Source of the DNA: an uncultured virus (IMG/VR IMGVR_UViG_3300031134_000641)
Taxonomy: Duplodnaviria > Heunggongvirae > Uroviricota > Caudoviricetes
Length of the DNA: 64,000 nt
Direction: 5' to 3' (one strand)
Virus record (IMG/VR): IMGVR_UViG_3300031134_000641
How positions within the stretch are numbered: the stretch's first letter is position 1; each line of letters opens with the position of its first letter. The position numbers and the translations under genes were made by a program. This document shows, piece after piece, positions 32,177 to 48,083 of this stretch. The notes under the pieces are model-generated. The model saw only the letters and a list, made by a program, of their open reading frames with translations. It ran no database searches and was not told the DNA's origin.

Positions 32177-32188
32177 CGTCAGAAGTAC

Positions 32189-32957: not shown

Positions 32958-32985
32958 CGCAACAATTTAATAAGCAACACAACAT

Positions 32986-33540: not shown

Positions 33541-33613
33541 GGTCCTGTAGCTCAAAGGATAGAGCGCTTCGCTACGAACGAAGAGGTTGGGGGTTCGAGT
33601 CCCTTCAGGACCA
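33541..33613 (+). tRNA. tRNA-Arg(ACG)
   Basis: cttcg-ctACGaa-cgaag. Confidence 0.95.
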
Positions 33614-33745
33614 CGCAAAAAACTGGTTGCCGTACTTTGGAGTGGGTACAGCAAGGGCTTATGCGCCCTACCGTGACCAGTATAAATATGCATGGTTCAA
33701 CCAAAAAAGGTTGAGCTTCACTACAGGTGAAGAAAGCATATATTT

Positions 33746-33819
33746 GCTCGCTTAACTCAGTTGGCTAGAGTGCCACCTTTACACGGTGGAGGTCGGGGGT
33801 TCGAGTCCCTCAGCGAGCA
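33746..33819 (+). tRNA. tRNA-Val(TAC)
   Basis: ccacc-ttTACac-ggtgg. Confidence 0.95.
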
Positions 33820-34012
33820 CGCTCCCATGAAAATGGGAACAGTATTAACCGTTTGCTTATACTTCTAGTCACAACCTAACCACCGTAATGTATCGCGCTG
33901 GTTAGCTGTGTCACAGGAAACTGTGTTTAGAGAACTCTACGGAGGCCGAAAGGTAGAAAGTCACTGAGAACGATACTAACATGGTAAAACATGTTACGGT
34001 TAATGCACATAT

Positions 34013-34084
34013 TGCCCTATAGTGTAACTGGCAACACGAGAGGTTCTGATTCTCTTATTCCTGGTTCGAATCCAGGTAGGGTAG
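34013..34084 (+). tRNA. tRNA-Gln(CTG)
   Basis: agagg-ttCTGat-tctct. Confidence 0.9.
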
Positions 34085-34161
34085 CAAAGCTAGTAGATGA
34101 AAATTTGCTAGCGCCGGAGGACTAGCGGGCTGAAGTTAGGCTTCCCCCTCCGGTTATTTTC

Positions 34162-34210
34162 GGGCGTAGCTGTTGTAGCCGGAAGGTTAGATTCCTTTCT
34201 GCGTCCACCA
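34162..34210 (+). ncRNA. 49-nt minihelix tRNA-like RNA ending ACCA
   Basis: gggcgta/tgcgtcc-ACCA; T-arm gaagg-ttagatt-ccttt; no anticodon arm. Confidence 0.65.
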
Positions 34211-34237
34211 CTTGGAAAGCTGAAAAGTTTTCCGCAT

Positions 34238-34313
34238 GTGACTGTAGGGGAGCCTGGCCGTCCCCGCCACCCTGTCAAGGTGGAGATCGCGGGTTCAAAT
34301 CCCGTCTTTCGCG
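34238..34313 (+). tRNA. tRNA-Asp(GTC), mismatched acceptor stem
   Basis: ccacc-ctGTCaa-ggtgg; gtgactg/ctttcgc. Confidence 0.75.
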
Positions 34314-34366
34314 CTCAGCTTTGCATTGTCAAAGCTTAAACTATGTCAGTGTTTCATCTGACATTT

Positions 34367-34440
34367 GCTCTCTTAACTCAGCTGGCTAGAGTGCCACCTT
34401 TACACGGTGGAGGTCGGGGGTTCAAGTCCCTCAGGGAGCA
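34367..34440 (+). tRNA. tRNA-Val(TAC)
   Basis: ccacc-ttTACac-ggtgg. Confidence 0.95.
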
Positions 34441-34497
34441 CGCAACAAAACAGAAATATGTGATATGGTAAAGTCAGACCAACAGGAAAGGCAAACC

Positions 34498-34980
34498 ATG
34501 ACAACAATTGCTAAAGCTCACCAACGTGAGCTAAAAGCTTGGAAACGTGCAGAGAAGCTAGACACTGCACGAGAGCAACAGAAGCGTAAACGAACACATA
34601 AGGAAGCAGAGTACGAGCTTAACGTAGCCATCCAGCGCGTTAGAGACAACAAAGTTGCTTTCATCAAAATTAAAAACCGCTGGGAAGCGGCAAGAAAAGC
34701 TCAGAAAAAGAATGCAAAAGCAACAATCAGTCATCTAAAAGCAAACAACGCAAGCGGAGAAAAAATTACCGCTGCAAAGGTGGCCGCTAAAGAAGCAGCA
34801 CGGAAACATGATGCTTATGTTAAATCTGAGACTGTACGCATCAAAGAGCTAATTAGTAACATCAAAATTGAATCAAAAGTTGACCGTAGTATCGCGCGAG
34901 AGAGCCTAAGCGTTCCCTTCAAAGTGGTCAACGCAGTACCAGACTGGCTAGCTGTTAGAGTTCCTAGCTTAACCTGGTAA
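34498..34980 (+). CDS. Basic coiled-coil hypothetical protein
   Basis: SD ggaaagg then ATG 34498; Lys/Arg/Ala-rich. Confidence 0.65.
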   Translation: MTTIAKAHQRELKAWKRAEKLDTAREQQKRKRTHKEAEYELNVAIQRVRDNKVAFIKIKNRWEAARKAQKKNAKATISHLKANNASGEKITAAKVAAKEAARKHDAYVKSETVRIKELISNIKIESKVDRSIARESLSVPFKVVNAVPDWLAVRVPSLTW

Positions 34981-35008
34981 AACATAGGAAGCCCTCAGGG
35001 TTTCTTAT

Positions 35009-35083
35009 GCTCACGTATCCCAACTGGCAGAGGAGCTAAGCTCAGACCTTAGTAATGTGTGGGTTCAAATCCCACCGTGAGCA
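35009..35083 (+). tRNA. tRNA-Leu(CAG) with short variable loop
   Basis: ctaag-ctCAGac-cttag. Confidence 0.85.
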
Positions 35084-35085
35084 CT

Positions 35086-35159
35086 GTGGCCGTGGCAGAG
35101 GCGGAAAATGCGACAGTTTGTGGAACTGTTTTGTGCGGGTTCGAACCCCGTCGGTCACC
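35086..35159 (+). tRNA. tRNA-His(GTG)
   Basis: acagt-ttGTGga-actgt; C discriminator. Confidence 0.85.
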
Positions 35160-35164
35160 CGAAA

Positions 35165-35952
35165 GCTTCACTTGTGAAGCTGAACAATAGCGGCATGACG
35201 CTATAAACCATCGCAAGGTGGGGAAAGACCAGTGTGACACCTGGTCGCCGTGTAAGCGGTATCTCATGCAATCTGAAACTGTTAAACGCTCCCGCAACGG
35301 GGTGTTAATGGTGCGAGTTACATGTAAGATCAAGTGAAGGGCAACTGCTATATAACTTGGTAAAGCTAACGGGGCTGTTTACATGCTGCAAGCACCATTT
35401 CAGTAAGGAAGGAATAGTAGTCCAAGCCTGTCAAGCGAGGGCGGATTCCACGAACGGAAAATAGGGAACGCCGGTTTCCTTGCCAGTCCGGGAGATTGCA
35501 ATTAGTGTGACAACGAAAGCATCAGAGGTGTGAAGTATTCTGTGAGTCAAAAACTTACGGAGCTTTGCGGAAAAGCACATCTCTAGTCAAAGATATTAGC
35601 TCAATTGGCAGAGCAACTGTATATGAAACAGTGAGTTGGTGGTTCAATCCCATCATATCATTCAAAGCGAAAGACTTTTCCTGTCACTTCGTGAAAGTGC
35701 CTTAATGCTTGGCCCGTGAGGGAACCAAGCCTCCAAGAAGCCCGCAAGGTGGAATGGAGTTCATGTGAAAGTAGTGCAGCAAAGAGGTTTAGCGGCCCCT
35801 TTGCGAATCAAAATCAGTGGAGAAGCGTGTGACATAAGGAGTAGCATCCCGAAGATGCTAGGCACGGAAGATACAGTGGGGACACTGTGGAAAAGTTGGG
35901 AAACAATAATCCAACTAAAGGCTTCCAACAAAGGGTTTATTCTCAGCCCTTT
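35165..35952 (+). ncRNA. GOLLD-like giant structured ncRNA (~790 nt) with embedded tRNA-like element
   Basis: No credible ORF; GNRA-capped hairpins between tRNA-His and tRNA-Gln; blocks gaggtgtgaagtattc..tcaaaa..cacatctc, gaaagtgccttaat..cccgcaagg and 3' aaggg..ctcagccctt resemble GOLLD as recalled, not aligned. Confidence 0.7.
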
Positions 35953-35955
35953 TAT

Positions 35956-36027
35956 TGCCCTATAGTGTAACTGGCAACACGAGAGGTTCTGATTCTCTTA
36001 TTCCTGGTTCGAATCCAGGTAGGGTAG
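35956..36027 (+). tRNA. tRNA-Gln(CTG), identical to the copy at 34013
   Basis: agagg-ttCTGat-tctct. Confidence 0.9.
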
Positions 36028-36293
36028 CGCAAACCATACTCGCTTGAAGATGCAACTAATCAAGCGAGAGTCACCTGAATGAATAGCATCTTCATTACGA
36101 GGTAACGTGGTAGGTAAGTTAATTCACCGGTCAACCCTTTGCAGGCCGACTGGTGAGGTTGATGTATTCTCTGACAACGGGGCACCGCTCAGGGAACTGA
36201 CCAAAAACTTTCCTACAGCGGTCATAATTTTACCAAAATGAACACGTTTAGTGTCGCACCGAGCGGCGTGAAATAAAAGTCGGTGCACTGTAG

Positions 36294-36376
36294 TCCGGTG
36301 ATGGGAAATTGGCGTCCTAGCAAGCTGTTAACTTGTGGCTGAAATATGCATGTAGGTTCGAATCCTGCCTCCGGAG
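36294..36376 (+). tRNA. tRNA-Asn(GTT) with long variable arm
   Basis: gcaag-ctGTTaa-cttgt; variable region ggctgaaatatgcat. Confidence 0.75.
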
Positions 36377-36511
36377 CAAATAGCGTATTCTAAAAAGTAT
36401 GCTATGATAGGTAGTAACACGACTGGCTGTTCTCCCCGTGAACAGGTTAACACTCCCTGTTTCCATGAAAATGTGAAGAGAGGCAGCCAGTTTTCTTCTC
36501 AAAGGAAAACA

Positions 36512-36742
36512 ATGTCACAAACACTACTCAGTAGATCAGAAAGAGCCGCCCGTTCAGTTATGCTAAAAAAAGAAATAATGAGGCTGCTAGCAGACGGTAA
36601 ACCAAAAGATATAAACACTGTTCTCGCTGAAGCCGCTGCACCCTGCGGACTTATTTCAGATGATGTAGCCCCTGTGCTGAGCAGTATGATTTACAAAAAA
36701 GAACTCACAGTAGACTTTTTGGTTAACACCGTTCGCGTCTAA
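36512..36742 (+). CDS. Small putative winged-helix protein
   Basis: SD aagga then ATG 36512; EIMRLLADGKP..LSSMIYKKEL. Confidence 0.55.
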   Translation: MSQTLLSRSERAARSVMLKKEIMRLLADGKPKDINTVLAEAAAPCGLISDDVAPVLSSMIYKKELTVDFLVNTVRV

Positions 36743-36771
36743 GAGTTCTCCCAAAAAGTTTCAGAATAGAC

Positions 36772-36801
36772 TTGACAAGCAACAACAAGTCATGTTATGA
36801 T
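36772..36801 (+). promoter_or_regulatory. Sigma70-type promoter
   Basis: TTGACA-18-TATGAT. Confidence 0.7.
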
Positions 36802-36920
36802 TAGAACATAACAGAAAACGACCTGAGTGAAACAGTCAGGGAAGCTGAGAACTGCATAGGCAAAGAGAACCTGTGCAGGGAAGCTAAAAAGGTGAACTTC
36901 TCACTCACCACTGTTTATAT

Positions 36921-36993
36921 TGCCTCATAGCTCAATTGGCAGAGCGGCGAGCTGTTAACTCGTAGGTTGTAGGTTCGAGTCCTACTGAGGCAG
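36921..36993 (+). tRNA. tRNA-Asn(GTT)
   Basis: gcgag-ctGTTaa-ctcgt. Confidence 0.95.
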
Positions 36994-37025
36994 CGACTGC
37001 ACCATGTGTGTAGTGTTACAAACTT

Positions 37026-37220
37026 GGGGTTATCGTTCAGTATACGGGAAGATGGCTGCATTAGGATTGATCTCCTGATGATCATGATAAACTTTCGTGA
37101 GGCATAACTAAAAAGTCAAAGCTGATAGAAGTGGGTTCGAGTCCCGCGACCGTTCTGACAAGGGGCGGTGATAACTGGACTAATTGATGCTCAGCCGGGG
37201 GCAGTACCCGGAGTTATACA
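37026..37220 (+). ncRNA. tRNA-derived RNA with large insertions, overlapping a minihelix with GGCAGTA T-loop
   Basis: ggttatc/gataact; T-arm gtggg-ttcgagt-cccgc; ccggg-ggcagta-cccgg. Confidence 0.5.
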
Positions 37221-37297
37221 AAACAACTTAATAAACTAAACTTTTCGGCCCCTCTTCAGGGTAAGCTCCTGAACTATAGGAGGCGCAGTCAAGTTAC

Positions 37298-37370
37298 GGG
37301 GACTTAGCTCAATTGGTAGAGCATCAGTTTTGCATACTGAAGGTCAGGGGTTCGATTCCCCTAGTCTCCA
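37298..37370 (+). tRNA. tRNA-Ala(TGC)
   Basis: tcagt-ttTGCat-actga; G3:U70. Confidence 0.95.
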
Positions 37371-37523
37371 CAGCTTTCACCTGATACGGCAAATAGTACG
37401 GTGAATGGGATTGGGAGTTTTGCCGCTTCACGAATCCTGACGAAATCCATCGTCTGCCTGTAAATCGTTTTTATCCTGTAAGACTTGCGCTTGGAGGATA
37501 AAAACGCTGGGAAACGGATGCTT

Positions 37524-37596
37524 GGGGACTTAGCTCAATTGGTAGAGCATCTGCTTTGCAAGCAGAAGGTCAGGGGTTCAATTCCCCTAGTCTCCA
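37524..37596 (+). tRNA. tRNA-Ala(TGC)
   Basis: tctgc-ttTGCaa-gcaga. Confidence 0.95.
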
Positions 37597-37783
37597 CCGA
37601 AAGTCAGGTGTTGTACTTAGCGGTACAACTAAGGGTCAGCCTAGACCAATCAGCTTGACTACTAACCTCACAGTAAAGGTTCCCTTAAAGGAAGTGCATT
37701 CTCCGGAAAGGTTATGTGAGAGAAGGACAACCGATAGTAAAATATCGTAACAATTGTTTTAGCTGGTGTACATGCTAGAATAT

Positions 37784-37855
37784 GCCTCTGTAGCTCAAAG
37801 GAAGAGCATCGGTCTTTTAAACCGAGGGTTGTGGTGTCGGGATCCACTGGGGGCA
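37784..37855 (+). tRNA. tRNA-Lys(TTT), aberrant T-loop (possible pseudogene)
   Basis: tcggt-ctTTTaa-accga; T region gtggtgtcgggatccac. Confidence 0.6.
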
Positions 37856-37886
37856 CTTAGTAACATTGTCAAAGTAATATAGATAT

Positions 37887-37968
37887 GCGCTTGTGGCGGA
37901 ATTGGCAGACGCGCTAGGTTTAGGTCCTAGTACCGCAAGGTGTGGAGGTTCAAGTCCTCTCAGGCGCA
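37887..37968 (+). tRNA. tRNA-Leu(TAG)
   Basis: ctagg-ttTAGgt-cctag. Confidence 0.95.
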
Positions 37969-38186
37969 CAAAGCAAGAATCAGATACGGGTTGCCAACCC
38001 TGTAGACTTCACTGTGGCGGTGAAGGGTGGTCTGATTGCCTTGCCTGCACTGTCTGGTCAACAGTGAGTATGCTAAACGTAAACCAGCCTTTGACCTTGC
38101 GGTTAAGTGGTAGCATACAAACCAACTTGTGTTGTTAGTAAATCTGATAAGCTTCTATTGTTAGATATAAGCAAGCAACACAGTTT

Positions 38187-38259
38187 GGGCCTCTAGCTCA
38201 ATTGGCAGAGCAGCGTCCTTTTAAGTCGCGGGTTCTCGGTTCAAGTCCGAGGGGGCCTA
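38187..38259 (+). tRNA. tRNA-Lys(TTT)
   Basis: gcgtc-ctTTTaa-gtcgc. Confidence 0.85.
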
Positions 38260-38291
38260 CAAAACTTTTTCAAAAAAGTTTGCTTGTCAGC

Positions 38292-38320
38292 TTGACAAGC
38301 TTTGAAGCATCGTGTATAGT
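38292..38320 (+). promoter_or_regulatory. Sigma70-type promoter
   Basis: TTGACA-17-TATAGT. Confidence 0.75.
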
Positions 38321-38587
38321 TAGATATGTAAGCAAGGGAAGCCAAGCTTACAAAAGAAAAGTAAGGAAAGTCGGAATATGATTTGACTTACTGAAGTTAA
38401 CATGATATAGTTAACCTAGATGCTTGATAAAACAATAGTGGAAAACAATTTTATTGTAAAGCTTTTTATACACTCACAATGTTGAATGTATAAAAAGTTC
38501 TGCAAGGAACATACCTCGTCCGGCTTGACCCGTCCGGAACGATCAGGGCTACTTGGTAGCGAGGTTAGTCAACGGGTCCCAATATAT

Positions 38588-38660
38588 GCATCTGTAGCTC
38601 AGTCGGTAGAGCAGCTGCCTCTTAAGCAGCGGGTCGTGGGTTCGAGCCCCACCGGATGCA
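38588..38660 (+). tRNA. tRNA-Lys(CTT)
   Basis: gctgc-ctCTTaa-gcagc. Confidence 0.95.
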
Positions 38661-38955
38661 CAATGACTTAACTTTACAGGTTAAGTCAGGCAATAAAAAG
38701 AAATCCGTGGTACGAGTGGCAACTCGTTTTGTTGATTGAATTGGAAGGTGACCGCCACGGTTAAATCCTTTCCGCTGCATCCGAAATCTCTTGCCAGAGG
38801 TTGCAGTTCTTTTTGAGGTGGAGTTCAGTGTAGGATTGACTAACCGCTTCGTTTTTTTGATGTTATGGTCTTGGTCTCTAGTAGGCTCTGGGGTAGCATC
38901 TTGTTGAGAAATACCATTCCACCTGATAGGTTGATAAAGCCTGACGGTGGAATAT

Positions 38956-39038
38956 GGGAGTGTTGAGCAATTGGCTGGCTCGACGGACTGTAAATCCGTT
39001 CCCTTCGGGGCTTGCAGGTTCGAATCCTGTCACTCCCA
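38956..39038 (+). tRNA. tRNA-Tyr(GTA)
   Basis: acgga-ctGTAaa-tccgt; variable arm. Confidence 0.9.
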
Positions 39039-39190
39039 CAGACTGTTCATTTGAGTCGTGCACAATCAAGACTTTGAAGTACTCAGTGAACTGTTCAGTG
39101 CTCATAGAAGATACAGGGTTAGCGTCCTGCTTACCGGGTTGAGTCTACTTGGTTAGGTTTAAAGTAAAACCGTCTGTGCTGCATGTTATC

Positions 39191-39331
39191 GTGTCAAAAG
39201 AACACTCCGGCTATGGAAGTAGCTGGTGGTGGAAGAGTGCTGTTGGTGAAGCACAGTAGGCCAAGAGCCTACTCTCCCCTTCCAGGGAGGAAGCGTGGGT
39301 TCAATTCCCATTCACCGCGTTCGTTTGACAC
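39191..39331 (+). ncRNA. tRNA-like domain with extra arms, closed by an outer stem
   Basis: gtgtcaaa/tttgacac outer stem; four hairpins plus T-arm gtggg-ttcaatt-cccat. Confidence 0.6.
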
Positions 39332-39335
39332 ACTT

Positions 39336-39408
39336 GGCCCCATCGTATAGCGGCCTATTACGTCGCCCTCTCACGGCGGTAACACGGGTTCGAATCCCGT
39401 TGGGGTCA
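39336..39408 (+). tRNA. tRNA-Glu(CTC)
   Basis: tcgcc-ctCTCac-ggcgg. Confidence 0.95.
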
Positions 39409-39566
39409 CAAAGGAAGACAACATGTTTCCTGAAGTGATATGTATCAAAATGCAGGAAAGCCTTTCATGAATGTAACGCGGTGAGGCCACGTGCGACTGT
39501 GGGGTTTGGTTGCACACAAAATTATCAGAGCAGGTTGAACTTAACAGTTCAGCTTGCTCTGATTCT

Positions 39567-39639
39567 GGGGACTTAGCTCAATTGGTAGAGCATCTGCTTT
39601 GCAAGCAGAAGGTCAGGGGTTCGATTCCCCTAGTCTCCA
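39567..39639 (+). tRNA. tRNA-Ala(TGC)
   Basis: tctgc-ttTGCaa-gcaga. Confidence 0.95.
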
Positions 39640-39679
39640 CAGAAAATAACAAAGAAGCAGACATGTTTCGTTCTTTTCT

Positions 39680-39853
39680 CATGTAAATAACTAATGTATG
39701 GTGGAATTGGCATACACGGCAGACTAGAGCTAAAGCGTTCAACCGATGGGTTGGGTGTCATGCTCGGAATCTGCCGCCCTAAGGTATGCGAGTGGAAACG
39801 CTTACTACTGAACGGCACGCAGGTTCGAATCCTGTTACACGAAAGTTTACATG
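39680..39853 (+). ncRNA. Leu-type tRNA-derived RNA with hairpin replacing the anticodon and giant variable arm
   Basis: D-arm gtggaattggcatacac; gcaga-ct[~40 nt]aa-tctgc; T-arm gcagg-ttcgaat-cctgt; outer stem catgtaaa/tttacatg. Confidence 0.7.
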
Positions 39854-39858
39854 CGTTT

Positions 39859-39931
39859 GGGGACTTAGCTCAATTGGTAGAGCATCAGTTTTGCATACTG
39901 AAGGTCAGGGGTTCGATTCCCCTAGTCTCCA
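39859..39931 (+). tRNA. tRNA-Ala(TGC)
   Basis: tcagt-ttTGCat-actga. Confidence 0.95.
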
Positions 39932-40113
39932 CAATGTTATCTGAGGTAACTTAGGTGACAGAGTTTTTGGTGTTATGTGTGGTGTAAGAGAATTATGCAC
40001 ACCCTACTAATTTTGTGGGGAGGGCCGCGCTTCAACTCAGTGTAGTAAATATGACAACAAAAACGGTTAGAGCTTTTAAGGTTAGCGTCAGTTCGGCTGA
40101 GGGAAACCTGTAT

Positions 40114-40196
40114 GGTGGTTATGGCGTAATTGGTAGCCGCGCTGGATTGTGATTCCAGTGTCTTCGGACGTGCGGGTTCAAGTCCCGTTAATCACC
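40114..40196 (+). tRNA. tRNA-His(GTG) with G-1 and class II-like variable arm
   Basis: ctgga-ttGTGat-tccag; variable arm tgtc-ttcg-gacg. Confidence 0.8.
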
Positions 40197-40333
40197 CGAG
40201 ATGCTGCTGGTGCCTCTCCTGTCTTGAACAGTGAAGCTAAAGCAGCAGCCTTCTGTTGGCTTCTCCCGGCTTGAACGGTGTCAGCTGACAGAAGGTTTTT
40301 ATATGATGGTTAGAGGTTCAATTCCTCTGAGGC

Positions 40334-40418
40334 TAGCATCACAAACCCATGATAATGGTGTTAGCTGAAGTCGTGGAGGCGCTGAGGTTCAAACCCTCAA
40401 CACAGTGTGGGTGTGCTA
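40334..40418 (+). ncRNA. Y-RNA-like (D-loop plus T-arm on a long stem) RNA candidate
   Basis: tagca..accca..gtgt / acac..tgggt-gtgcta; T-arm tgagg-ttcaaac-cctca; no anticodon arm. Confidence 0.45.
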
Positions 40419-40485
40419 CGGTAAGGCAATAGGTTCGCGCAACCGCCAGCTGATTTCCCGGTTACAGTCAAAAAACCAGGGACCT

Positions 40486-40557
40486 GCCCTCATAGCTCAA
40501 TAGGTAGAGCGGTGCATTGAAGACGCATATATCTCGGTTCAATTCCGGGTGTGGGCA
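40486..40557 (+). tRNA. tRNA-Phe(GAA), atypical
   Basis: gtgca-ttGAAga-cgcat with mismatches. Confidence 0.65.
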
Positions 40558-40716
40558 CGCTATTCCCCCAGCCGCACAGTATCAGGTGGGTTGATAAATA
40601 GGGGTTTGCTGTAAAAGTGACAACAAGAAATTTGTTTCCCTTTTGCGGATTATTATAGGGAAGGTGGAATCTGGTTTCACCACATAGGCGGTTGGAAGGT
40701 TCCGCATATGAGTTTT

Positions 40717-40790
40717 GGCTGGGTAGCTCAGTCTGGTAGAGCGCTGCACTGAAAATGCAGAGGTCCACGGATCAACGCCGTGTCCAGCCA
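40717..40790 (+). tRNA. tRNA-Phe(GAA), T-loop ATCAACG
   Basis: ctgca-ctGAAaa-tgcag. Confidence 0.85.
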
Positions 40791-40867
40791 CAACATAATT
40801 TAATATGAACACCCTGAGCCGCTTAGGTCTCCCATTTATTGGGTTAGGTTTTATACCCTCAGGTTAT

Positions 40868-40951
40868 GCTTGTGTGGCGGAATTGGTAGACGCGCTAGAC
40901 TAAGGATCTAGTTCCCGTAAGGGAGTGGGAGTTCGACTCTCCCCATGAGCA
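40868..40951 (+). tRNA. tRNA-Leu(AAG)
   Basis: ctaga-ctAAGga-tctag; Leu D-arm and variable arm. Confidence 0.9.
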
Positions 40952-40985
40952 CTCATCCTTGACAGTTATATGGTTAAACTGTTAT

Positions 40986-41072
40986 GCACGTGTGGCGGAA
41001 TGGTAGACGCGCAGCGTTGAGGTCGCTGTGAGATTTTCTCTCGTGCTGGTTCGACTCCAGTCATGTGCACCA
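40986..41072 (+). tRNA. tRNA-Leu(GAG)
   Basis: cagcg-ttGAGgt-cgctg; CCA. Confidence 0.95.
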
Positions 41073-41217
41073 AGTTTTCTGTTAGTTTCTTTTAAAAACT
41101 GACCACGTTATCAATGGCAGACGTGTGGGAACAATTTTGTAAAGTTCATGAGCTTTACAGAAAACATTTCCAAAAACCGCAATAAGTTTAAGCGCTTGAA
41201 CTTATTATTGGTAGCTT

Positions 41218-41287
41218 TTTTCTCTTGAATAATGGCAGTTCGGCTCCCGTGGAGGGGGCAGGTGTAGGTTCGAATCCTACGAGAAAT
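41218..41287 (+). pseudogene. tRNA-like sequence with non-canonical anticodon loop (cgTGGag)
   Basis: D-arm gaat/gttc; gctcc/ggggc; T-arm gtagg-ttcgaat-cctac; G at position 33. Confidence 0.55.
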
Positions 41288-41289
41288 AC

Positions 41290-41364
41290 GCCTTGTTAGC
41301 TCAGCCTGGCTAGAGCGCCATCTTGGTATGATGGAGGTCGTCGGTTCAAGTCCGACACGAGGCT
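41290..41364 (+). tRNA. tRNA-Thr(GGT)
   Basis: ccatc-ttGGTat-gatgg. Confidence 0.95.
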
Positions 41365-41529
41365 CCGTGCTGTTCGGTAGGTGCTACTACAACCTATTGA
41401 GCTTAGTCCACTCATGTTCCCTACGCTGGGATACGGGTGGATAATTTTGGGGTCTGCTCCCATAAGAAAGCCTAGTGTGGTTATTCTGTTGTAGTAGACA
41501 GAGTACCGTGTGTCCACATATTTTACCTT

Positions 41530-41654
41530 ATTCTCAGGTAGTTGGCTTAGAAGCAGCCATCTTTAAAGAGTGACGGCAGTATCAGGAGCCGGGGTTTGTA
41601 CCTGCCCCACACGCTTTTTAGTGTGGTCTTTGGCGTAATAGCACACCCGTGAAT
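41530..41654 (+). ncRNA. 23S rRNA GTPase-associated centre (H43-H44, L11 site) mimic RNA with ~60-nt insertion
   Basis: GTTGGCTTAGAAGCAGCCATC-TTTAAAGAGTG ... GCGTAATAGC-ACAC reproduces the conserved 23S ~1059-1104 core. Confidence 0.8.
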
Positions 41655-41670
41655 TTTGTAAATATGTTTT

Positions 41671-41757
41671 GGAAGCGTGTCCGAGAGGCTTATGGTGTAA
41701 CCTTGGAAAGGTTATGTGGCGTCAAAACCACCGCAGGTTCGAATCCTGTCGCTTCCG
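41671..41757 (+). tRNA. tRNA-Ser(GGA)
   Basis: taacc-ttGGAaa-ggtta. Confidence 0.95.
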
Positions 41758-41782
41758 CGTTAACTTGCTTAGCAGGGGACTT

Positions 41783-41924
41783 GTCGTGTTGATAGAGTCA
41801 GGTTCAATATTGCGGTGGAGGATACCTTCTTTGAGGGATAAGCCAAACCCGCGTAGTAGCGAACACCCGGCGAAAGCTGGGAGTAGTGTTCAGCTGCGCA
41901 CAGGTTCAAATCCTGTACACGGCC
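41783..41924 (+). ncRNA. Ser/Leu-type tRNA-derived RNA with hairpin-replaced anticodon and giant variable arm
   Basis: gtcgtgt/acacggc acceptor; gcgg/ccgc around a ~33 nt insert; gaacac-ccggc-gaaa-gctgg..gtgttc; T-arm acagg-ttcaaat-cctgt. Confidence 0.7.
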
Positions 41925-41986
41925 CTTATTCAAGTTTTTTGGTTCTAAGTTGCGGAAGTACTTGTTTGTAGTGTATAGTAGTTCTT

Positions 41987-42063
41987 GCCCCTTTAGCTTA
42001 GCAGGTTAGAGCACCCCGCTCATAACGGGTCGGTCGTCGGTTCAAGTCCGACAAGGGGCACCA
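41987..42063 (+). tRNA. tRNA(CAT), likely Ile2 or elongator Met
   Basis: ccccg-ctCATaa-cgggt; CCA. Confidence 0.85.
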
Positions 42064-42092
42064 ATTACTTTCTGGCAGGTTAGCCTGCTTTT

Positions 42093-42176
42093 GCTCTTGT
42101 GGCGGAATTGGCAGACGCGGTTGACTTAAAATCAATTGTCCTTACGGGCGTGTGGGTTCGAGTCCCATCAGGAGTA
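42093..42176 (+). tRNA. tRNA-Leu(TAA)
   Basis: gttga-ctTAAaa-tcaat. Confidence 0.95.
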
Positions 42177-42209
42177 CGGTAACAAAGGTAGGCTCTTCGG
42201 AGTTTATAG

Positions 42210-42285
42210 TGACTGGTAGTTTAACTGGTAAAACGCAAGGCCGTTTTTTACGCCTTGTTTTTAGGTTCAAGTCCTGAACGGTCAG
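42210..42285 (+). ncRNA. tRNA-like RNA with enlarged anticodon loop
   Basis: caaggc-cgttttttac-gccttg; normal D- and T-arms. Confidence 0.6.
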
Positions 42286-42425
42286 CAAAAGGTTTTGATA
42301 CGTTAACCTTGTGTCAGCAAAAAACGTTAGTGGTTGTCCGGCGTTCAGGTTTAGTTGCAAAGCTAGGCGGTGTTCATTGGCTTCCATGATTTCCTATGCA
42401 GGACTGTACAACCTGTTAGGAGTAT

Positions 42426-42495
42426 TCTTTAGTTGAAGCTATGCGGTAGCAAAACACGAACGTGTTCATTCCTGGTTCGAATCCGGGCTAAAGAG
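42426..42495 (+). ncRNA. Anticodon-less tRNA-like RNA (tetraloop arm)
   Basis: tctttag/ctaaaga; aacac-gaac-gtgtt; cctgg-ttcgaat-ccggg. Confidence 0.6.
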
Positions 42496-42613
42496 CTTGT
42501 TAGACAACGAATCTGTCACACAGCGAAAGGCAGCACCTGCCACTACCAGGAGGGTAAGGAGGGGATATTAATCCGCTGTTCGTCTAATAGTTTTTAAACT
42601 GCTTTTGTAGTTT

Positions 42614-42686
42614 GCCTTCTTAGCTCAGTTGGTAGAGCGCATTACTCGTAATAATGAGGTCACCGGTTCGATTCCGGTAGGAGGCT
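42614..42686 (+). tRNA. tRNA-Thr(CGT)
   Basis: catta-ctCGTaa-taatg. Confidence 0.95.
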
Positions 42687-42817
42687 CAGAGGCTCTGTAA
42701 GGAGTCCGAACGCGTTACCCTACAGGTAGACGTTCAAAGCTAAAAAGTGCGTTAAAATGGATTCTGGAGGGGATGAGAGTGGTTTACAAGCAATCTAGTA
42801 GCCGACAGGATTTTAAC

Positions 42818-43162
42818 ATGGGCCGTACACGAGATTATTCGCGGAAACACTACGGTGGCGACGAGCCTCTGGCCCAGTGGGAGCAGGAGCTTCTTATCGC
42901 AGGAGACTCTAACGTGAAGAAATATCTTAACCCTTCTCGTGAAGAGCTAATCAAAGTTATTTGTGAAGCTTTAGCGTACAAAGGAGAATGGTATCACTCT
43001 CAACTTGTCCTACCAGTTTATGCTGACTTCGGTAGCTTAGAAGATAAAGCAGCTGAATTAGGCCCAGGCTATGGTATTCACATAATTCATAGTTACGAGG
43101 AACAAATTCAGCAACCTAAAAAAGGTTATAACCAGAGGGAGACAAATAGAAATGTCATCTGA
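42818..43162 (+). CDS. Hypothetical protein (paralog of next gene)
   Basis: YKGEWYHSQL..GSLEDKAAELG. Confidence 0.65.
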   Translation: MGRTRDYSRKHYGGDEPLAQWEQELLIAGDSNVKKYLNPSREELIKVICEALAYKGEWYHSQLVLPVYADFGSLEDKAAELGPGYGIHIIHSYEEQIQQPKKGYNQRETNRNVI

Positions 43163-43538
43163 AAACAAAAGGCGCGTGTACACTTGTACTCCAGACCATG
43201 AATGTACTCTTGAAGAAATTAGGGATATGATACATGAAAGCCGTAGAATTGATGCAGATGCTTCTGTAGAAGATTTTGGTGAAGCTAGCCAAGAAGACTT
43301 GGCTAAGATAATCCGTAAAGCCCAGCTTTACACTGGCGAGTGGTATCACTCTAAAGCAACGATTTCAAGTCAGTTGGCTAAGACACCTGGAACTTTAGAG
43401 CATCAGGTTGCTCAGCTTGGTGAAGAAAATGGTATTAGCTTGTCCTTCTTTATGGACAGAAGGTTCATGGACAGCAAAGAAACTGCTGAGTATGACGCTC
43501 TGGAAGATAAGTTAGAAAAAATGTTTCAAAAATCTTGA
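43152..43538 (+). CDS. Hypothetical protein (paralog of previous gene)
   Basis: YTGEWYHSKA..GTLEHQVAQLG. Confidence 0.65.
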   Translation: MSSENKRRVYTCTPDHECTLEEIRDMIHESRRIDADASVEDFGEASQEDLAKIIRKAQLYTGEWYHSKATISSQLAKTPGTLEHQVAQLGEENGISLSFFMDRRFMDSKETAEYDALEDKLEKMFQKS

Positions 43539-43617
43539 CTTTGTTGCCGATAGTATGCTATACTAATTATGTTGGCGCAGTTGTTAGCTATATAAAGTCA
43601 ACACAGTAACACAGTTA

Positions 43618-43690
43618 GGCCCCATCGTTTAGCGGCCAAGGACGCTAGGCTTTCATCCTAGTAGCACGGGTTCGAATCCCGTTGGGGTCA
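43618..43690 (+). tRNA. tRNA-Glu(TTC)
   Basis: ctagg-ctTTCat-cctag. Confidence 0.95.
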
Positions 43691-43724
43691 CTTGGAAGAA
43701 ACAAAGTTGTTTCATTCCCATCGA

Positions 43725-43801
43725 CGCGGAGTGGGGAAGTTCGGTATCCCGCTAGGCTCATAACCTAGAGGTCGCAGGTTCAAATCCTGCCTCCGCAACC
43801 A
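43725..43801 (+). tRNA. tRNA-fMet-like (CAT)
   Basis: C1:A72 mismatch; ctagg-ctCATaa-cctag; CCA. Confidence 0.9.
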
Positions 43802-43822
43802 TGTTAGCCAAGAACACAAACT

Positions 43823-43894
43823 TGGTAGGTATATAGTGTATTAGAGCACGCCATCGTGAGATGGAAGCGAAAACTGCGAATGTTTTCTTTACCA
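43823..43894 (+). ncRNA. Anticodon-less tRNA-like RNA (GNRA-capped arm)
   Basis: gtgt-attaga-gcac; ccatc-gtga-gatgg; gaaaac-tgcgaat-gttttc. Confidence 0.55.
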
Positions 43895-43895
43895 C

Positions 43896-43973
43896 TGCGG
43901 AGTAACTGGAGTTCGGTCCCAGTCCAGGCTCATAACCTGGCGTACGTCAGTTCAAATCTGACCTCCGCTTCCA
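43896..43973 (+). tRNA. tRNA-fMet-like (CAT), atypical D-arm
   Basis: U1:U72 mismatch; ccagg-ctCATaa-cctgg; CCA. Confidence 0.8.
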
Positions 43974-44000
43974 CTTCATTAAGGTAACTTAATGATTTTT

Positions 44001-44078
44001 GGCCCGTTAGCTTAGTCGGCTTAAAGCGCCACCCTGTCACGGTGGAGATCGCCGGTTCGAATCCGGTACGGGTCGCCA
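44001..44078 (+). tRNA. tRNA-Asp(GTC)
   Basis: ccacc-ctGTCac-ggtgg; CCA. Confidence 0.95.
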
Positions 44079-44357
44079 AACCCATAAAGCGTTACTGTAG
44101 CGAACATGTCAACTACGGTAACGCTTTTTCTTGAAATACCCTTTCGTTTTTGTTTTGAATACGATAAAGTTGTTTTCTGCATTTGTTTGCAGGATGTGAA
44201 GTCATTCGGCCATGGATTCACGTTTGTGTGGGCTGAAAACATAAAGTTTAAGCCCACACAAAACTTTTCTGGTAAATAGTTTGACTTTCTTCCGATAGTC
44301 TGTTATAGTATAAGTAGTGACAAAGTAACAACAGCAATAAAACTAAATAGTTTCAAT

Positions 44358-44431
44358 GGCCCGTTAGCTCAGTTGGTTAGAGCGCCACCCTGTCACGGTG
44401 GAGGTCGCCGGTTCGAGTCCGGTACGGGTCG
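44358..44431 (+). tRNA. tRNA-Asp(GTC)
   Basis: ccacc-ctGTCac-ggtgg. Confidence 0.95.
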
Positions 44432-44445
44432 CGGTAACAAAATAT

Positions 44446-44519
44446 GGCGATGTGCCCGAGTAGCCAAGGGAACAGTCTGCAAAACTGTACAATCGCGGGT
44501 GCAAGTCCCGTCGTCGCCT
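44446..44519 (+). tRNA. tRNA-Cys(GCA)
   Basis: acagt-ctGCAaa-actgt; U73. Confidence 0.9.
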
Positions 44520-44543
44520 CAAATACAACTGAATATAAACTAT

Positions 44544-44618
44544 GCCGGTGTAGCTCATGATGGTCAGAGCGTCGCACTCATAACGCGGAGGTAGTGGGTT
44601 CGGCTCCCACCACCGGTA
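44544..44618 (+). tRNA. tRNA-Met(CAT)
   Basis: tcgca-ctCATaa-cgcgg. Confidence 0.8.
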
Positions 44619-44641
44619 CAGATAACACAAGTAACACCCAT

Positions 44642-44713
44642 TGGGGTATGGTGTAATTGGCAACACGAGTGATTCTGGTTCATTTGTTCTTGGTTCGAGT
44701 CCAGGTACCCCAG
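44642..44713 (+). tRNA. tRNA-Gln(CTG)
   Basis: agtga-ttCTGgt-tcatt. Confidence 0.95.
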
Positions 44714-44720
44714 CAGATAT

Positions 44721-44797
44721 GCTGCTATAGCTTAGCTTGGTAGAGCGCTATCCTGACACGATAGAGGTCGCAGGTTCAAATCCTGCTAGCAGCACCA
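44721..44797 (+). tRNA. tRNA-Val(GAC)
   Basis: ctatc-ctGACac-gatag; CCA. Confidence 0.95.
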
Positions 44798-44870
44798 AAC
44801 AGAAAACAGTGAACTTATTTGTTCGCTGTTTTCTGTTTTGAGGTACAATAAAATAAGTAACACATGCTAT

Positions 44871-44954
44871 GCTCTTGTGGCGGAATTGGTAGACGCGCTT
44901 GACTCAAAATCAAGTGCCCTTACGGGCGTGTGGGTTCGAGTCCCACCAGGAGTA
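44871..44954 (+). tRNA. tRNA-Leu(CAA)
   Basis: cttga-ctCAAaa-tcaag. Confidence 0.95.
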
Positions 44955-45009
44955 CACAATGACAAAAACAAACATGCAAAAAGTGAGAAAAAAGTAAACA
45001 CTTTACCAG

Positions 45010-45507
45010 GTGACAAAATTTGAAGTTTGGGTTCACCCTCCCTTTGAAGACAATGTCATACATCAAGCCCTCATATTCACAGAGTCAAGCGACCAAGAGT
45101 GGCTTCTCAGTGTAGAGGACGCTGGTATAAGTCAAATGATACCTGAAAGGGAACTCTCCGGGCTTTCTTTTCTCCTGCAAGAAGGTCTCAAAGACTACCA
45201 GGAGCCAACAGATGAAGCTCTCTATGAAGCTGACTCTTGGGCACCTTATGCGACTCGCCTTCCAGGTGTCCGCACCAAAGACGTGTCTGACAGTAAAGTG
45301 TACGAGGTCAACATTCCATGGCCTGAAGAGAAAAGTATAATAGTAGGACAAGAAACTTTTAACCAGATGAGGCTGTATCAGGTCGGAGGAGAATGGTTCC
45401 TGAAATTCCCCTACGGTCCTAAGACACTTCATTTGGAGTATAACGCTCTACCTATGTTGTCTAAGATGGTCACAAAAGTTTTGAAGCACGTTAACAAAAA
45501 CAGTTGA
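45010..45507 (+). CDS. Hypothetical protein
   Basis: 165 aa ORF, possibly two internal repeats. Confidence 0.55.
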   Translation: MTKFEVWVHPPFEDNVIHQALIFTESSDQEWLLSVEDAGISQMIPERELSGLSFLLQEGLKDYQEPTDEALYEADSWAPYATRLPGVRTKDVSDSKVYEVNIPWPEEKSIIVGQETFNQMRLYQVGGEWFLKFPYGPKTLHLEYNALPMLSKMVTKVLKHVNKNS

Positions 45508-45710
45508 GTTTGGCTGGTGAAGAGAGAAACTTCCCGTAAGATTACATGTATACGAAGCATGCCTCGTGTGTGTTGTAGATGTAGTTTCCTGTTGAATGTC
45601 TCCTCTGCTCTCACGGTGTTATCACAGTAAACTCCCCCAGGACGGAAACGTAGCAAGGGTAGCTGTGCTCTAGCAGGTGTGATGGGCAGAGGAGACTTTT
45701 TTGTGCTACA

Positions 45711-46256
45711 ATGGCTCATATGGATACAACCGAGCTTAGAAGCAAAGCCTACAATATTCTCTCTGATACTAGACAGCTGAAAAGTAAGACAGTAAGCATG
45801 CAGAAGATTTGTTCTCATGAGGGCATTAAGGTAATTGACAGCAAAAACTATGACCTTGAAGACTACAATACATTAGGTCGGGTTTCATACACTGGCAAGA
45901 TTTTCCAGATTGTAGTAAACAACACCCTTTCTCCAGTAGAACAAAGGGTGGAAGAAGCTGTACTCTATGCTTACGTTAAACTAAACGGTCACACTCTGGT
46001 AGACCGCTGGGCGAAAGAAAAACTCCCCAACGGAAGAGTTTGGGCTGCTCGTCACAAGCGTGACTCAGAAGAGTGGGAGAGATACACTCTGTTCGCGCAG
46101 TACATTCTCCTAGGATCTTTTATTGGTAAGGAACGCAAGATTGTACAAGATAAGAATGCTCTAAAGCACATACACAAATATGCACACCAGAAGAAAGTAT
46201 CAACAGAGTTCCTGGTGCAGTATCTGACTCGTGAAGCAGCTAAAAAAGTTAACTGA
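45711..46256 (+). CDS. ImmA/IrrE-like fold protein lacking HExxH
   Basis: ICSHEGIKV..IVVNNTLSPVEQR..FAQYILL. Confidence 0.45.
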   Translation: MAHMDTTELRSKAYNILSDTRQLKSKTVSMQKICSHEGIKVIDSKNYDLEDYNTLGRVSYTGKIFQIVVNNTLSPVEQRVEEAVLYAYVKLNGHTLVDRWAKEKLPNGRVWAARHKRDSEEWERYTLFAQYILLGSFIGKERKIVQDKNALKHIHKYAHQKKVSTEFLVQYLTREAAKKVN

Positions 46257-46341
46257 ACTAGCTAATTTAACTTATGCAGATAATCTCTACTGTGAGAATG
46301 AGCGGCATACTCACACAAACAGCAGAGGTATTACAATACAC

Positions 46342-47454
46342 ATGTCTTCAATAACAAAAAACGGCAAAAAAATGGGGCTGACGCTTCTCGCAGCGTCAGC
46401 TTTACTTCTTACAACAACAGTACCAGCATCAGCAGCAACGCCTAAGTTTACGTTAGCAAGCTTAACTGCTTCAGTAAACGGGACAACAGTGACAGCTTCA
46501 ACTACTGTCAAAGCATCAGCAGACACGAAAGTAACAACATTAGGTATATGCGCACGAAACTCAGCTAACGCTGACGTGGACTTTCCAGGTGTCTCAGGGG
46601 CAACAGTAAAAACAGCTGGAACAACGGTAACTAAAACGAAAACTTTACCAGTAGGTACATACAGTTACTTCGCATGTGTTAACTACAACAACACTTGGTA
46701 CAATGTCGGTTCAGCTAAAACATTCACAGTCAAACCAGCTACAGCAGCGTCAACAGCGTTGCCTGAAGGTAACCTACCAGGGTGGACACAGACCTTTAAA
46801 GAGGACTTCAACTCTCCACTCTCAGCTGGAGGATTCCCCGGCTCTTACTCAAACCAGTGGCTTAGCTACACAGGCTTCACCGACACGTTCAAAAACGGTG
46901 ACTACGACCAAAGTATCCTCTCCGTGAAAGACGGTAAACTTAACGCTTACCTCCACACTGGTGCTGACGGCAGACCAAAAACTGCTGCACCAGTTCCTCT
47001 GGTCAACGGTCAATGGGGCGGGCAACAGTATGGCCGCTTTAGCGTGAGAATGAGGACAGGCTCACTGCCTGGCTACAAAACAGCTTTCCTGCTTTGGTCA
47101 GATGAAAACAACTGGAATGATGGAGAAGTTGACTTCCCCGAAGGCCAACTCAACGGGACAGTTAACGGGTTCAACCATTGTGTTGGCAACCCCACACAGA
47201 ACTGTATGGTAGCTGAAACAGGTGCTAAATTCACTGACTGGCACACTTACACAATTGATTGGACCCCAAGTAAGCTGACATACTATGTTGACGGGGTAGC
47301 TGTTGGTTCAACAACTGAGTCCATCCCCACAGCTAAAATGCACTGGGTGATGCAGATTGAAACAGCTGACGGGATGGTTCCATCTAAAACAACGGCAGGT
47401 AACGTAGAAATAGATTGGGCAACAATCTATGCTTACACGCCCACAACAAAATAA
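46342..47454 (+). CDS. Secreted glycoside hydrolase family 16
   Basis: Signal peptide; catalytic GEVDFPEG; YGRFSVRM; WHTYTIDW. Confidence 0.9.
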   Translation: MSSITKNGKKMGLTLLAASALLLTTTVPASAATPKFTLASLTASVNGTTVTASTTVKASADTKVTTLGICARNSANADVDFPGVSGATVKTAGTTVTKTKTLPVGTYSYFACVNYNNTWYNVGSAKTFTVKPATAASTALPEGNLPGWTQTFKEDFNSPLSAGGFPGSYSNQWLSYTGFTDTFKNGDYDQSILSVKDGKLNAYLHTGADGRPKTAAPVPLVNGQWGGQQYGRFSVRMRTGSLPGYKTAFLLWSDENNWNDGEVDFPEGQLNGTVNGFNHCVGNPTQNCMVAETGAKFTDWHTYTIDWTPSKLTYYVDGVAVGSTTESIPTAKMHWVMQIETADGMVPSKTTAGNVEIDWATIYAYTPTTK

Positions 47455-47545
47455 GTCAAAGTTTTTTTAAAAAACGGTTTGACTTAAACCAACTGTTGTG
47501 TTATAGTAGTACTTGTAACAAAGTAATGCTATAACACAACAGTAA

Positions 47546-47618
47546 GGCCCCATCGTTTAGCGGCCAAGGACGCTAGGCTTTCATCCTAGTAGCACGGGTT
47601 CGAATCCCGTTGGGGTCA
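47546..47618 (+). tRNA. tRNA-Glu(TTC), identical to the copy at 43618
   Basis: ctagg-ctTTCat-cctag. Confidence 0.95.
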
Positions 47619-47674
47619 CGCAACAAAAATAAAGTGGACATACCGATAAAAGTATGGTACACTAGAAATAACAT

Positions 47675-47764
47675 GGAAGCGTGGTAGAGCGGCTTATTAC
47701 ACCACCCTGCTAAGGTGGAGTTCCTGAAAGGGGACCGCAGGTTCAAATCCTGTCGCTTCCGCCA
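47675..47764 (+). tRNA. tRNA-Ser(GCT)
   Basis: ccacc-ctGCTaa-ggtgg; CCA. Confidence 0.95.
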
Positions 47765-48009
47765 AACAACTAAATAGCGTAACAATTTTTCTGGCTGATT
47801 CTTCGTAGGGGTATGAAGAACAGGACTCACGACTGCGAAACCCCTCCAGTGTGGTGAGTGCGACTTTCAAGTATGTCGGTCTAAAACTTGTTGCTTACAA
47901 TTGATGAGGCTGTAAGCAGAACTAAAGCTAGTAGCTTCGCGGGTTGATGTATTGAGGTTACCTTCGGGTAACTGAAACTGACGCAAAAGGCAAACGCCAC
48001 TCATCACAT

Positions 48010-48083
48010 GCTCTCTTAACTCAGTTGGCTAGAGTGCCACCTTTACACGGTGGAGGTCGGGGGTTCGAGTCCCTCAGGGAGCA
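48010..48083 (+). tRNA. tRNA-Val(TAC)
   Basis: ccacc-ttTACac-ggtgg. Confidence 0.95.

Follow-up and report, generated by a model that had tools for sequence, protein, structure and literature searches.

In a stretch of 64,000 nucleotides (nt) from an uncultured virus of the class Caudoviricetes (IMG/VR record IMGVR_UViG_3300031134_000641), which at its full length constitutes the window of this analysis, an extended array of transfer RNA (tRNA) genes comprises two oversized members, termed c1 (39680-39853) and c2 (41783-41924), that are tRNA-derived genes unable to decode as encoded. With middling confidence, and judging from sequence and predicted structure, we propose that both give rise to stable, non-decoding RNAs on a tRNA scaffold, which would be cut out along with the tRNAs of the array. 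In the best reading of the comparisons presented here, they would be grouped with RNA C of bacteriophage T4 and with oversized Leu-type genes, an architecture that is common in the IMG/VR database and at least partly under selection.

The window contains 62 tRNA genes as called by ARAGORN, which lie on the plus strand throughout and mostly fall within 30650-48085. Both c1 and c2 occupy the same strand and are in register with this array, being located 25-52 nt past one tRNA and 16-62 nt ahead of the next. According to the proposed mechanism, c1 and c2 would retain the upper half of a tRNA, namely the T arm, a D loop with its GG and a closing stem, and two long hairpin arms would replace the anticodon loop and the short variable region. 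The RNAs would be co-transcribed with the adjacent tRNAs of the array and would expose a tRNA-like elbow allowing ribonuclease (RNase) P and the 3'-end enzymes to excise and stabilise them, in the manner of T4 RNA C, and the added arms would represent the working part or cargo. In terms of origin, the ancestor of c1 would be a phage tRNA-Leu(UAA) that acquired extra sequence in the 5' part of its anticodon loop and an enlarged variable arm, and c2 would be an independent case on another tRNA body.

Anatomy of c1 and c2

The predicted fold of c1 has a minimum free energy (MFE) of -59.8 kcal/mol (z -3.0; equally stable in 1 of 200 shuffles) and is closed by a perfect outer helix of 8 base pairs (bp), formed by 39680-87 with 39846-53. 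Inside this helix follow an imperfect acceptor stem (39692-98 with 39836-42; 5 of 7 pairs), a D arm (39701-17) in which a 3-bp stem (39701-03 with 39715-17) carries a Leu-type loop of 11 nt with GG, an anticodon-type arm (39718-75), a variable arm of 43 nt (39776-39818) with a GAAA loop at 39795-98, a T arm (39819-35) and a discriminator A at 39843. The anticodon-type arm, 58 nt in length, comprises a 6-bp stem (39718-23 with 39770-75), a 3x4 internal loop, 4 bp, a 4x3 loop and a 10-bp hairpin; the 46-nt insert it contains (39724-69) thus folds as a 4-bp plus 10-bp hairpin.

Its sequence shows c1 to be derived from tRNA-Leu. Over positions 8-33 (39699-39725), it agrees in 27 of 27 nt with a canonical 82-nt tRNA-Leu(UAA) of an IMG/VR phage contig, and this identity spans the D arm, the 5' strand of the anticodon stem and the first two bases of the loop. 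On the 3' side, the final two A's of the anticodon loop and the stem are retained, and the intervening sequence is entirely new. With lax filters, the Rfam tRNA model RF00005 can be aligned to c1 from end to end (39692-39843), leaving 44 nt of the anticodon loop and 41 nt of the variable region as inserts. As encoded, c1 lacks an anticodon loop of the regular kind (7 nt, U33, purine at position 37).

The fold of c2 is a five-arm cloverleaf with an MFE of -51.4 kcal/mol (z -2.3; equally stable in 5 of 200 shuffles), likewise on the plus strand. Its acceptor stem (41783-89 with 41917-23) is fully paired at 7 of 7 positions, its D arm (41792-41808) has a stem with 3 of 4 pairs and GG in the loop, and a long arm of 41 nt with an inner hairpin (41812-52), which accommodates an insert of 33 nt, precedes a variable arm of 47 nt (41853-99; GAAA at 41872-75), the T arm (41900-16) and a discriminator C at 41924. 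RF00005 recognises merely the T arm (14 bits), and no candidate anticodon loop is present in c2, either with the insert in place or with the insert removed.

The first-pass annotation of this DNA, made without database searches, had described a design common to both genes, consisting of D and T arms, an anticodon stem extended by an insert of 30-45 nt and a variable arm of 40-50 nt capped by GAAA. Fold analysis bears out this description as well as the coordinates and arm sizes given with it, the inserts measuring 33-46 nt and the variable arms 43-47 nt; both bodies are tRNA-derived, and a canonical anticodon loop is absent from c2 and interrupted in c1. The annotation had missed the damaged acceptor stem of c1, in place of which the outer helix closes the fold, and a partial resemblance of the two genes: c1 and c2 are unrelated in primary sequence as far as their arms are concerned, whereas the T arm plus the 3' acceptor strand are alike, with a local score of 40 versus 27.3 +/- 5.0 for shuffled sequences (reached in 5 of 200). 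The inserts are indeed far too short for group I introns, whose core needs roughly 200 nt or more; no intron family was detected in c1 or c2 at E-values up to 10, and no Rfam intron or ribozyme family matched them.

The same annotation had suggested that leucyl- and seryl-tRNA synthetase (LeuRS and SerRS) might charge these RNAs. As far as identity marks in the sequence can indicate, this suggestion receives partial support for c1, in which A73 and the Leu D arm fit a Leu-type tRNA and the acceptor stem is damaged, and none for c2. The designation of c2 as a chargeable 'Ser/Leu-type' RNA is unsupported, because its discriminator is C, versus the G that follows the acceptor stem in the neighbouring tRNA-Ser(GGA) of the array.

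Several other features were considered and discarded. When introns were allowed, ARAGORN interpreted c1, once the threshold was lowered, as Ser(AGA) interrupted by an intron of 73 nt and c2 as Ser(GGA) with one of 47 nt; neither call was accepted, because the strongest hairpins, including the GAAA hairpin of c2, would be broken and the resulting anticodon stems are poor. An archaeal bulge-helix-bulge was rejected for c1 since its internal loops are 3x4 and 4x3 rather than two 3-nt bulges around 4 bp. Finally, an open reading frame (ORF) of 21 codons that starts within the c1 insert was judged to be due to chance, as were the words CCUAAG/UAUG in the basal part of the c1 variable arm.

Oversized tRNA-like genes in other phages

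The architecture of c1 was sought in IMG/VR by means of a motif consisting of the Leu D-loop word, a gap of 85-115 nt and the T-loop word, which leaves the acceptor positions outside the motif and gave at least 117 matches in at least 115 stretches. Among the 117 matches listed, 46 consist of a normal tRNA-Leu with a second tRNA behind it, 61 have the two words outside canonical tRNAs, and 10 are mixed. A perfect acceptor stem of 7 pairs occurs at the canonical offset in 50 of the matches listed (47 of them unique), compared with none at offsets of +/-1, +/-2 and +3 and 8 at -3. The resulting set of at least 47 unique oversized Leu-type genes of uncultured phages (IMG/VR loci L005-L117) ranges from 131 to 158 nt in length; one of the 47, L055, is a false member, being a 5' fragment beside a real tRNA-Leu. 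Acceptor sequences are diverse (36 different ones in the 47 unique genes listed), a discriminator A is found in 37 of these 47, a canonical tRNA lies within 200 nt of only 8, and the anticodons assigned by ARAGORN are scattered, with Leu in 6. The middles of the listed genes are related neither to one another nor to c1. Since at least 47 genes thus combine perfect, covarying acceptor stems with unrelated inserts, the oversized kind is widespread, and since the inserts are mutually unrelated, what recurs is the architecture, and the genes need not form one homologous family. Such genes are missed by tRNA finders at default settings, have no family in Rfam and were not found in the literature searched.

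Concerning c1, the Leu D loop and the T loop are present at a spacing of 106 nt together with the discriminator A; moreover, c1 and the oversized Leu-type genes have in common an insert that follows the 5' strand of the stem and a second hairpin ahead of the T arm. In contrast to their 7 of 7 acceptor pairs, c1 has its 5 of 7 plus the outer helix, and unlike these genes, which are mostly distant from tRNAs, it resides within an array. By BLAST, the c1 insert matches none of the inserts of the listed genes. c2 differs from the oversized Leu-type genes in lacking the Leu D loop and falls outside the motif; a gapped motif scan specific for c2 returned a single chance match, composed of a spacer followed by a canonical tRNA-Asp, and no set containing c2 was found. 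As a separate observation, ARAGORN places a 71-nt tRNA-Ile(TAT) inside one oversized Leu-type gene (locus L116, 190-342).

A subfamily from gut phages (L118-L166) comprises 49 loci with 21 unique sequences of 153-158 nt. Here, 6 of the 7 acceptor pairs show two-sided changes and the insert is nearly invariant, which identifies the insert as the constrained part. An inner helix appears to covary in the alignment by eye, uncounted by the tool. These genes are not near tRNAs and reside instead in the recombination/replication module of gut phages of 30-70 kb, next to genes for Sak4, NinB, NinG, a helicase and a DnaD-like protein; among phage records, they match only one contig, which comes from a fecal phage and is unannotated.

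One of the closest precedents among known RNAs is the product of T4 rnaC (species 1 RNA), a 139-nt gene on the tRNA strand within the phage tRNA cluster. Its fold (z -4.6) consists of an imperfect closing stem, an arm of 60 nt, a hairpin of 22 nt and then a canonical T arm, and it has no anticodon loop. T4 RNA C shares with c1 and c2 the location in a tRNA cluster, the T arm, the closing stem and the long substitute arms; its long arm occupies the place of both D and anticodon arms, and a variable-type hairpin precedes the T arm. Unlike c1, it has no Leu-type D arm, and neither c1 nor c2 matches the T4 rnaC stretch (L001) in sequence by BLAST at E-values up to 1. Its stability is taken from the record annotation ('small, stable RNA'), whereas c1 and c2 are known as sequences alone. 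No Rfam model exists for T4 RNA C, which together with RNA D is transcribed from the tRNA region, the roles of both being unknown according to a T4 review (PMC3014915). Furthermore, a 118-nt gene within the tRNA cluster of Aeromonas phage 65.2 is annotated as 'tRNA-OTHER'.

A tRNA upper half that serves as a handle, whether it aids processing, stability or the binding of proteins, is familiar from engineered tRNA scaffolds, YrlA (Y RNA-like) and transfer-messenger RNA (tmRNA), in whose tRNA-like domains the anticodon end carries other cargo. Neither of the two natural examples was recognised in the window: the YrlA model reaches 17.9 bits versus a cut-off of 69 bits, and no Ro-family protein was identified among the window proteins; no tmRNA was called by ARAGORN or Rfam, the model scoring at most 10.5 bits. 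A literature search for oversized phage tRNA-like RNAs yielded no more than the paper on Lak introns, the T4 review and papers on GOLLD and ROOL RNAs.

Decay, splicing and processing as alternatives

Near-identical DNA was encountered in 20 runs from 17 studies among the matches listed, which stem from phyllosphere, plant and straw samples; the array is contained in at least 13 DNA runs. In runs X10 and X14, c1 is present with five differences, at 39706, 39711, 39725, 39738 and 39766. Mapped on the predicted fold, three of these fall in loops and two in pairs (39738, U.G to C-G; 39711, G-C to G.U), and no pair is broken. The change at 39766 (G>A), found in two related strains, converts the sole possible anticodon of c1 from CGG to CAG (leucine); such a swap between near-identical strains is to be expected of an unused triplet and should not be tolerated by a decoding tRNA. 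c2 shows 16 differences in run X10.

A contig of the RNA library X14 (39653-39852) spans c1 without a gap, and RNA-library contigs also cover a third stretch of the array, c3 (37026-37178), which is treated below. No contig joint removes an insert, and the joints listed link repeated tRNAs; contigs drop rare variants, so that a spliced form is not excluded by this result. Contig ends are uninformative as to the ends of the RNAs, because contigs break at repeated tRNAs.

Searches of contig and phage collections for relatives of the phage or of the two genes found none. Exact stretches of c1 or c2 were not found in viral, metagenome or genome contigs, protein-guided scans with the ORFs at 34465-34980, 45010-45507 and 46231-47454 in viral contigs and with that at 45010-45507 in metagenome contigs retrieved no relatives, and a blastn comparison of both genes with 50,697 phage records returned just D-arm and T-arm fragments of tRNA-Leu. 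The Leu motif was also absent from the four huge-phage genomes that carry the nearest DnaK.

Against this background, it is conceivable, if somewhat unlikely, that c1 and c2 are decaying tRNA genes with hairpin-forming insertions in a redundant array (besides c1, seven tRNA-Leu and three tRNA-Ser genes are present), drifting as pseudogenes without a function of their own. Several observations favouring decay weigh at the same time against stable RNAs from these genes. The acceptor stem of c1 is left with 5 of 7 pairs, the non-pairs being 2:71 and 3:70, and its score of 21.0 bits (E 0.028) on RF00005 remains below the gathering cut-off of 29, compared with end-to-end matches at 31-40 bits in 13 of the 20 oversized Leu-type genes tested. 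c1 diverges from its relatives no less than spacers do, with 5 changes in 244 nt versus 14 in 484 and 16 in 732. In addition, the array contains other decayed tRNA-like pieces, namely further orphan T arms and a degenerate stretch at 40257-40335. Decay would also agree with the polymorphic anticodon-like triplet and with the lack of detectable relatives of c2. Three more points detract from the proposal of functional arms: no relatives of the c1 and c2 inserts were found that would permit a covariation test of the arms, two of five changes in paired positions are not significant for c1 (62% paired; P 0.28 for two or fewer of five), and the RNA-library contigs over c1 and c3 may reflect DNA carry-over rather than expression.

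On the other hand, decay is opposed by the fact that both genes keep the marks of the tertiary core and possess strongly folding arms with GNRA caps. The acceptor stem of c2 is perfect, and the damaged stem of c1 is backed by the 8-bp outer helix, a helix of this length appearing in 33 of 2000 shuffles of the flanks. All five strain differences in c1 leave the predicted pairs unbroken, and the same architecture is plainly selected elsewhere. The first-pass annotation had argued that the repetition of the design speaks against decay; recurrence is indeed seen in the at least 47 unique IMG/VR genes, and within the window the argument is weak given the other degenerate pieces.

A further possibility, which appears very improbable, is that c1 is a tRNA with a short intron, in which an insert of 39 nt between position 32 and U33 is removed by some route to yield a decoding tRNA-Leu body with the anticodon CGG, or CAG in the relatives. 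Formally, the removal of 39725-39763 from c1 produces a loop of C32, U33, CGG, A37 and A38 on a 5-bp stem. Genuinely interrupted genes exist in support of such a route: among the unique IMG/VR matches to a second motif, 12 of 19 are tRNA-Leu(UAA) genes with an insert of 40-52 nt at the same C32/U33 site. Including 3 of the 47 oversized genes listed, the interrupted tRNA-Leu(UAA) genes have 40-62 nt between C32 and U33, a complete anticodon loop and a normal variable arm. A tRNA-Arg(TCT) of 118 nt with 45 nt inserted at 31/32 is encoded in a published phage genome of 735 kb (locus L195; LR756501, 207096-207213), and tRNAs of Lak megaphages carry 'enigmatic introns', as stated by Devoto et al. 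2019 (PMC6784885). The first-pass suggestion of an undescribed RNA class is to be qualified by this published precedent and is otherwise consistent with the lack of an Rfam family.

The interrupted Leu(UAA) genes and the Lak tRNAs resemble c1 in being tRNA genes of huge phages with a conserved insert of tens of nt. The insert lies on the 5' side of the anticodon loop in the former set and, formally, also in c1. Unlike c1 and c2, both sets regain a normal cloverleaf once the insert is excised. In c1, insert removal does not restore one, since the variable arm of 43 nt and the incomplete acceptor stem persist, versus variable arms of 15-22 nt and 6-7 of 7 acceptor pairs in the interrupted Leu(UAA) genes; in c2, the anticodon loop is lacking and no candidate loop exists on either side. 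Moreover, the coincidence of U33 and a purine at 37 beside a stem is expected by chance in about 1 of 8 cases. With CGG as its anticodon, a tRNA with a Leu body would misread codons for proline; in addition, the array has its own tRNAs for both anticodons, Pro(CGG) and Leu(CAG). Among the window proteins, neither a splicing enzyme nor an RNA ligase was recognised.

Two observations concern the interrupted tRNA-Leu(UAA) genes themselves, a set from uncultured phages represented by L170, L176, L178, L179, L180, L188, L190 and also L183. Inserts of the L170 type (47-50 nt) have an outer stem of 7-9 bp and, inside it, a hairpin whose 7-nt loop is invariant and whose stem covaries, and they end in CACCA directly ahead of U33. 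In sequence, this insert resembles a minihelix, complete with discriminator and CCA, that is nested in the anticodon loop and might as such be a substrate for RNase P and 3'-end trimming. Separately, the 3' end of a ROOL RNA (121 bits; L088, 1-184) is located directly upstream of one interrupted tRNA-Leu(UAA).

It is scarcely probable that c1 and c2 are mere processing signals (t-elements) which recruit RNase P and RNase Z to free structured spacers, their arms being without a role: the spacers of the array are indeed long (100-300 nt) and structured, a tRNA-like element of 70 nt without an anticodon arm (42426-42495) and a GOLLD RNA are found in the same array, but canonical tRNAs recurring every 100-300 nt seem to make extra signals unnecessary, and two long, stable arms would be left unexplained.

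The array and the tRNA fold as a possible carrier

A scan of the plus strand for T-arm motifs, defined as a 5-bp stem flanking TTCRANN, recovered 67 instances, of which seven are outside called tRNAs, at 30544, 37131 (c3), 39819 (c1), 40312, 40383, 41900 (c2) and 42471. c3, which had been put forward as a third and looser case of the design of c1 and c2, turned out to be of a different design: it is a structured spacer on the plus strand in which only a single T-arm-like hairpin (37131-47), followed by another hairpin, is tRNA-like. Its fold is weak (z -1.4), it does not match the Rfam tRNA model, and an intron-bearing tRNA Thr(cgt) called by ARAGORN solely at a threshold of 80% was rejected for its poor stem. 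In relatives, the T loop of c3 differs by G>A at 37139 and T>C at 37142, both of which keep the consensus. The 70-nt element at 42426-42495 combines 7 of 7 acceptor pairs with a T arm (42471-87) and two short hairpins on the plus strand, and is called neither by ARAGORN nor by Rfam. The stretch at 40257-40335 has an orphan T arm and a G.U-rich acceptor pairing of 7 bp, lacks convincing D and anticodon arms, and has the appearance of a decayed tRNA; additional orphan T arms lie at 40383-40399 and 30544-30560.

Among the canonical tRNAs, anticodons beginning with A, which are unusual for bacteria, were noted for Pro-AGG, His-ATG and Leu-AAG (twice), and a tRNA for Ile-TAT is present as well; the genes concerned are found at 30984, 35590, 39226, 40868 and 51742. 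A Leu-CAG gene (35009-35084) measures only 76 nt and therefore has no long variable arm. The array bears traces of segmental duplication (37298-37598 and 39567-39932): four tRNA-Ala(TGC) genes of two sequence types (37298 similar to 39859, and 37524 similar to 39567) flank c3 and c1. Two copies of tRNA-Gln(CTG), 34010-34085 and 35953-36028, are 100% identical. Around c1 and c2, neither promoter-like sites (9 versus 5.7 +/- 2.6) nor terminator-like sites (8 versus 6.2 +/- 2.5) are enriched.

Two further structured RNAs accompany the tRNAs. A GOLLD RNA (35523-35949; Rfam, 230 bits) lies within the array and encloses the tRNA-His with the unusual anticodon ATG (35590-35663); according to a preprint (10.1101/2024.12.08.627333), phage tRNAs are located in the GOLLD linker region. 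Just downstream of the array and on the same strand, a small signal recognition particle RNA of the bacterial type is encoded at 45600-45697 (Rfam, 55 bits). The ORFs flanking the array are mostly without recognisable identity, apart from a sigma factor, an FtsK-like protein and an HNH endonuclease. Also recognisable among them are an exonuclease- or terminase-like ORF with an intein (7573-9447), an oligoribonuclease homologue (58149-58694; 146 bits) and a full-length DnaK (61373-63241), whose nearest copies among phage records (about 54% identity) include those of uncultured phage genomes of 635-735 kb. The window is read as belonging to a huge phage or to another large mobile element of similar kind.

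A broader concept, which we advance as quite improbable, would regard the upper half of tRNA-Leu as a portable handle in wide use among phages, engaging RNase P, the CCA-adding enzyme and perhaps LeuRS, on which interchangeable RNA modules are displayed. c1 and c2 would then be array-borne versions with two display arms each, and might act as chargeable non-decoding decoys or adaptors, for instance against defences by which the host attacks the ends of tRNAs, or might have the neighbouring GOLLD RNA as their partner.

In general, phage tRNA clusters are viewed purely as devices for codon supply. If the oversized genes described here make stable RNAs, phages would also use the tRNA fold to carry RNA functions of other kinds. 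The oversized genes also bear on the 50-year-old question of what T4 RNA C does, for tests of which they supply many natural sequence variants.

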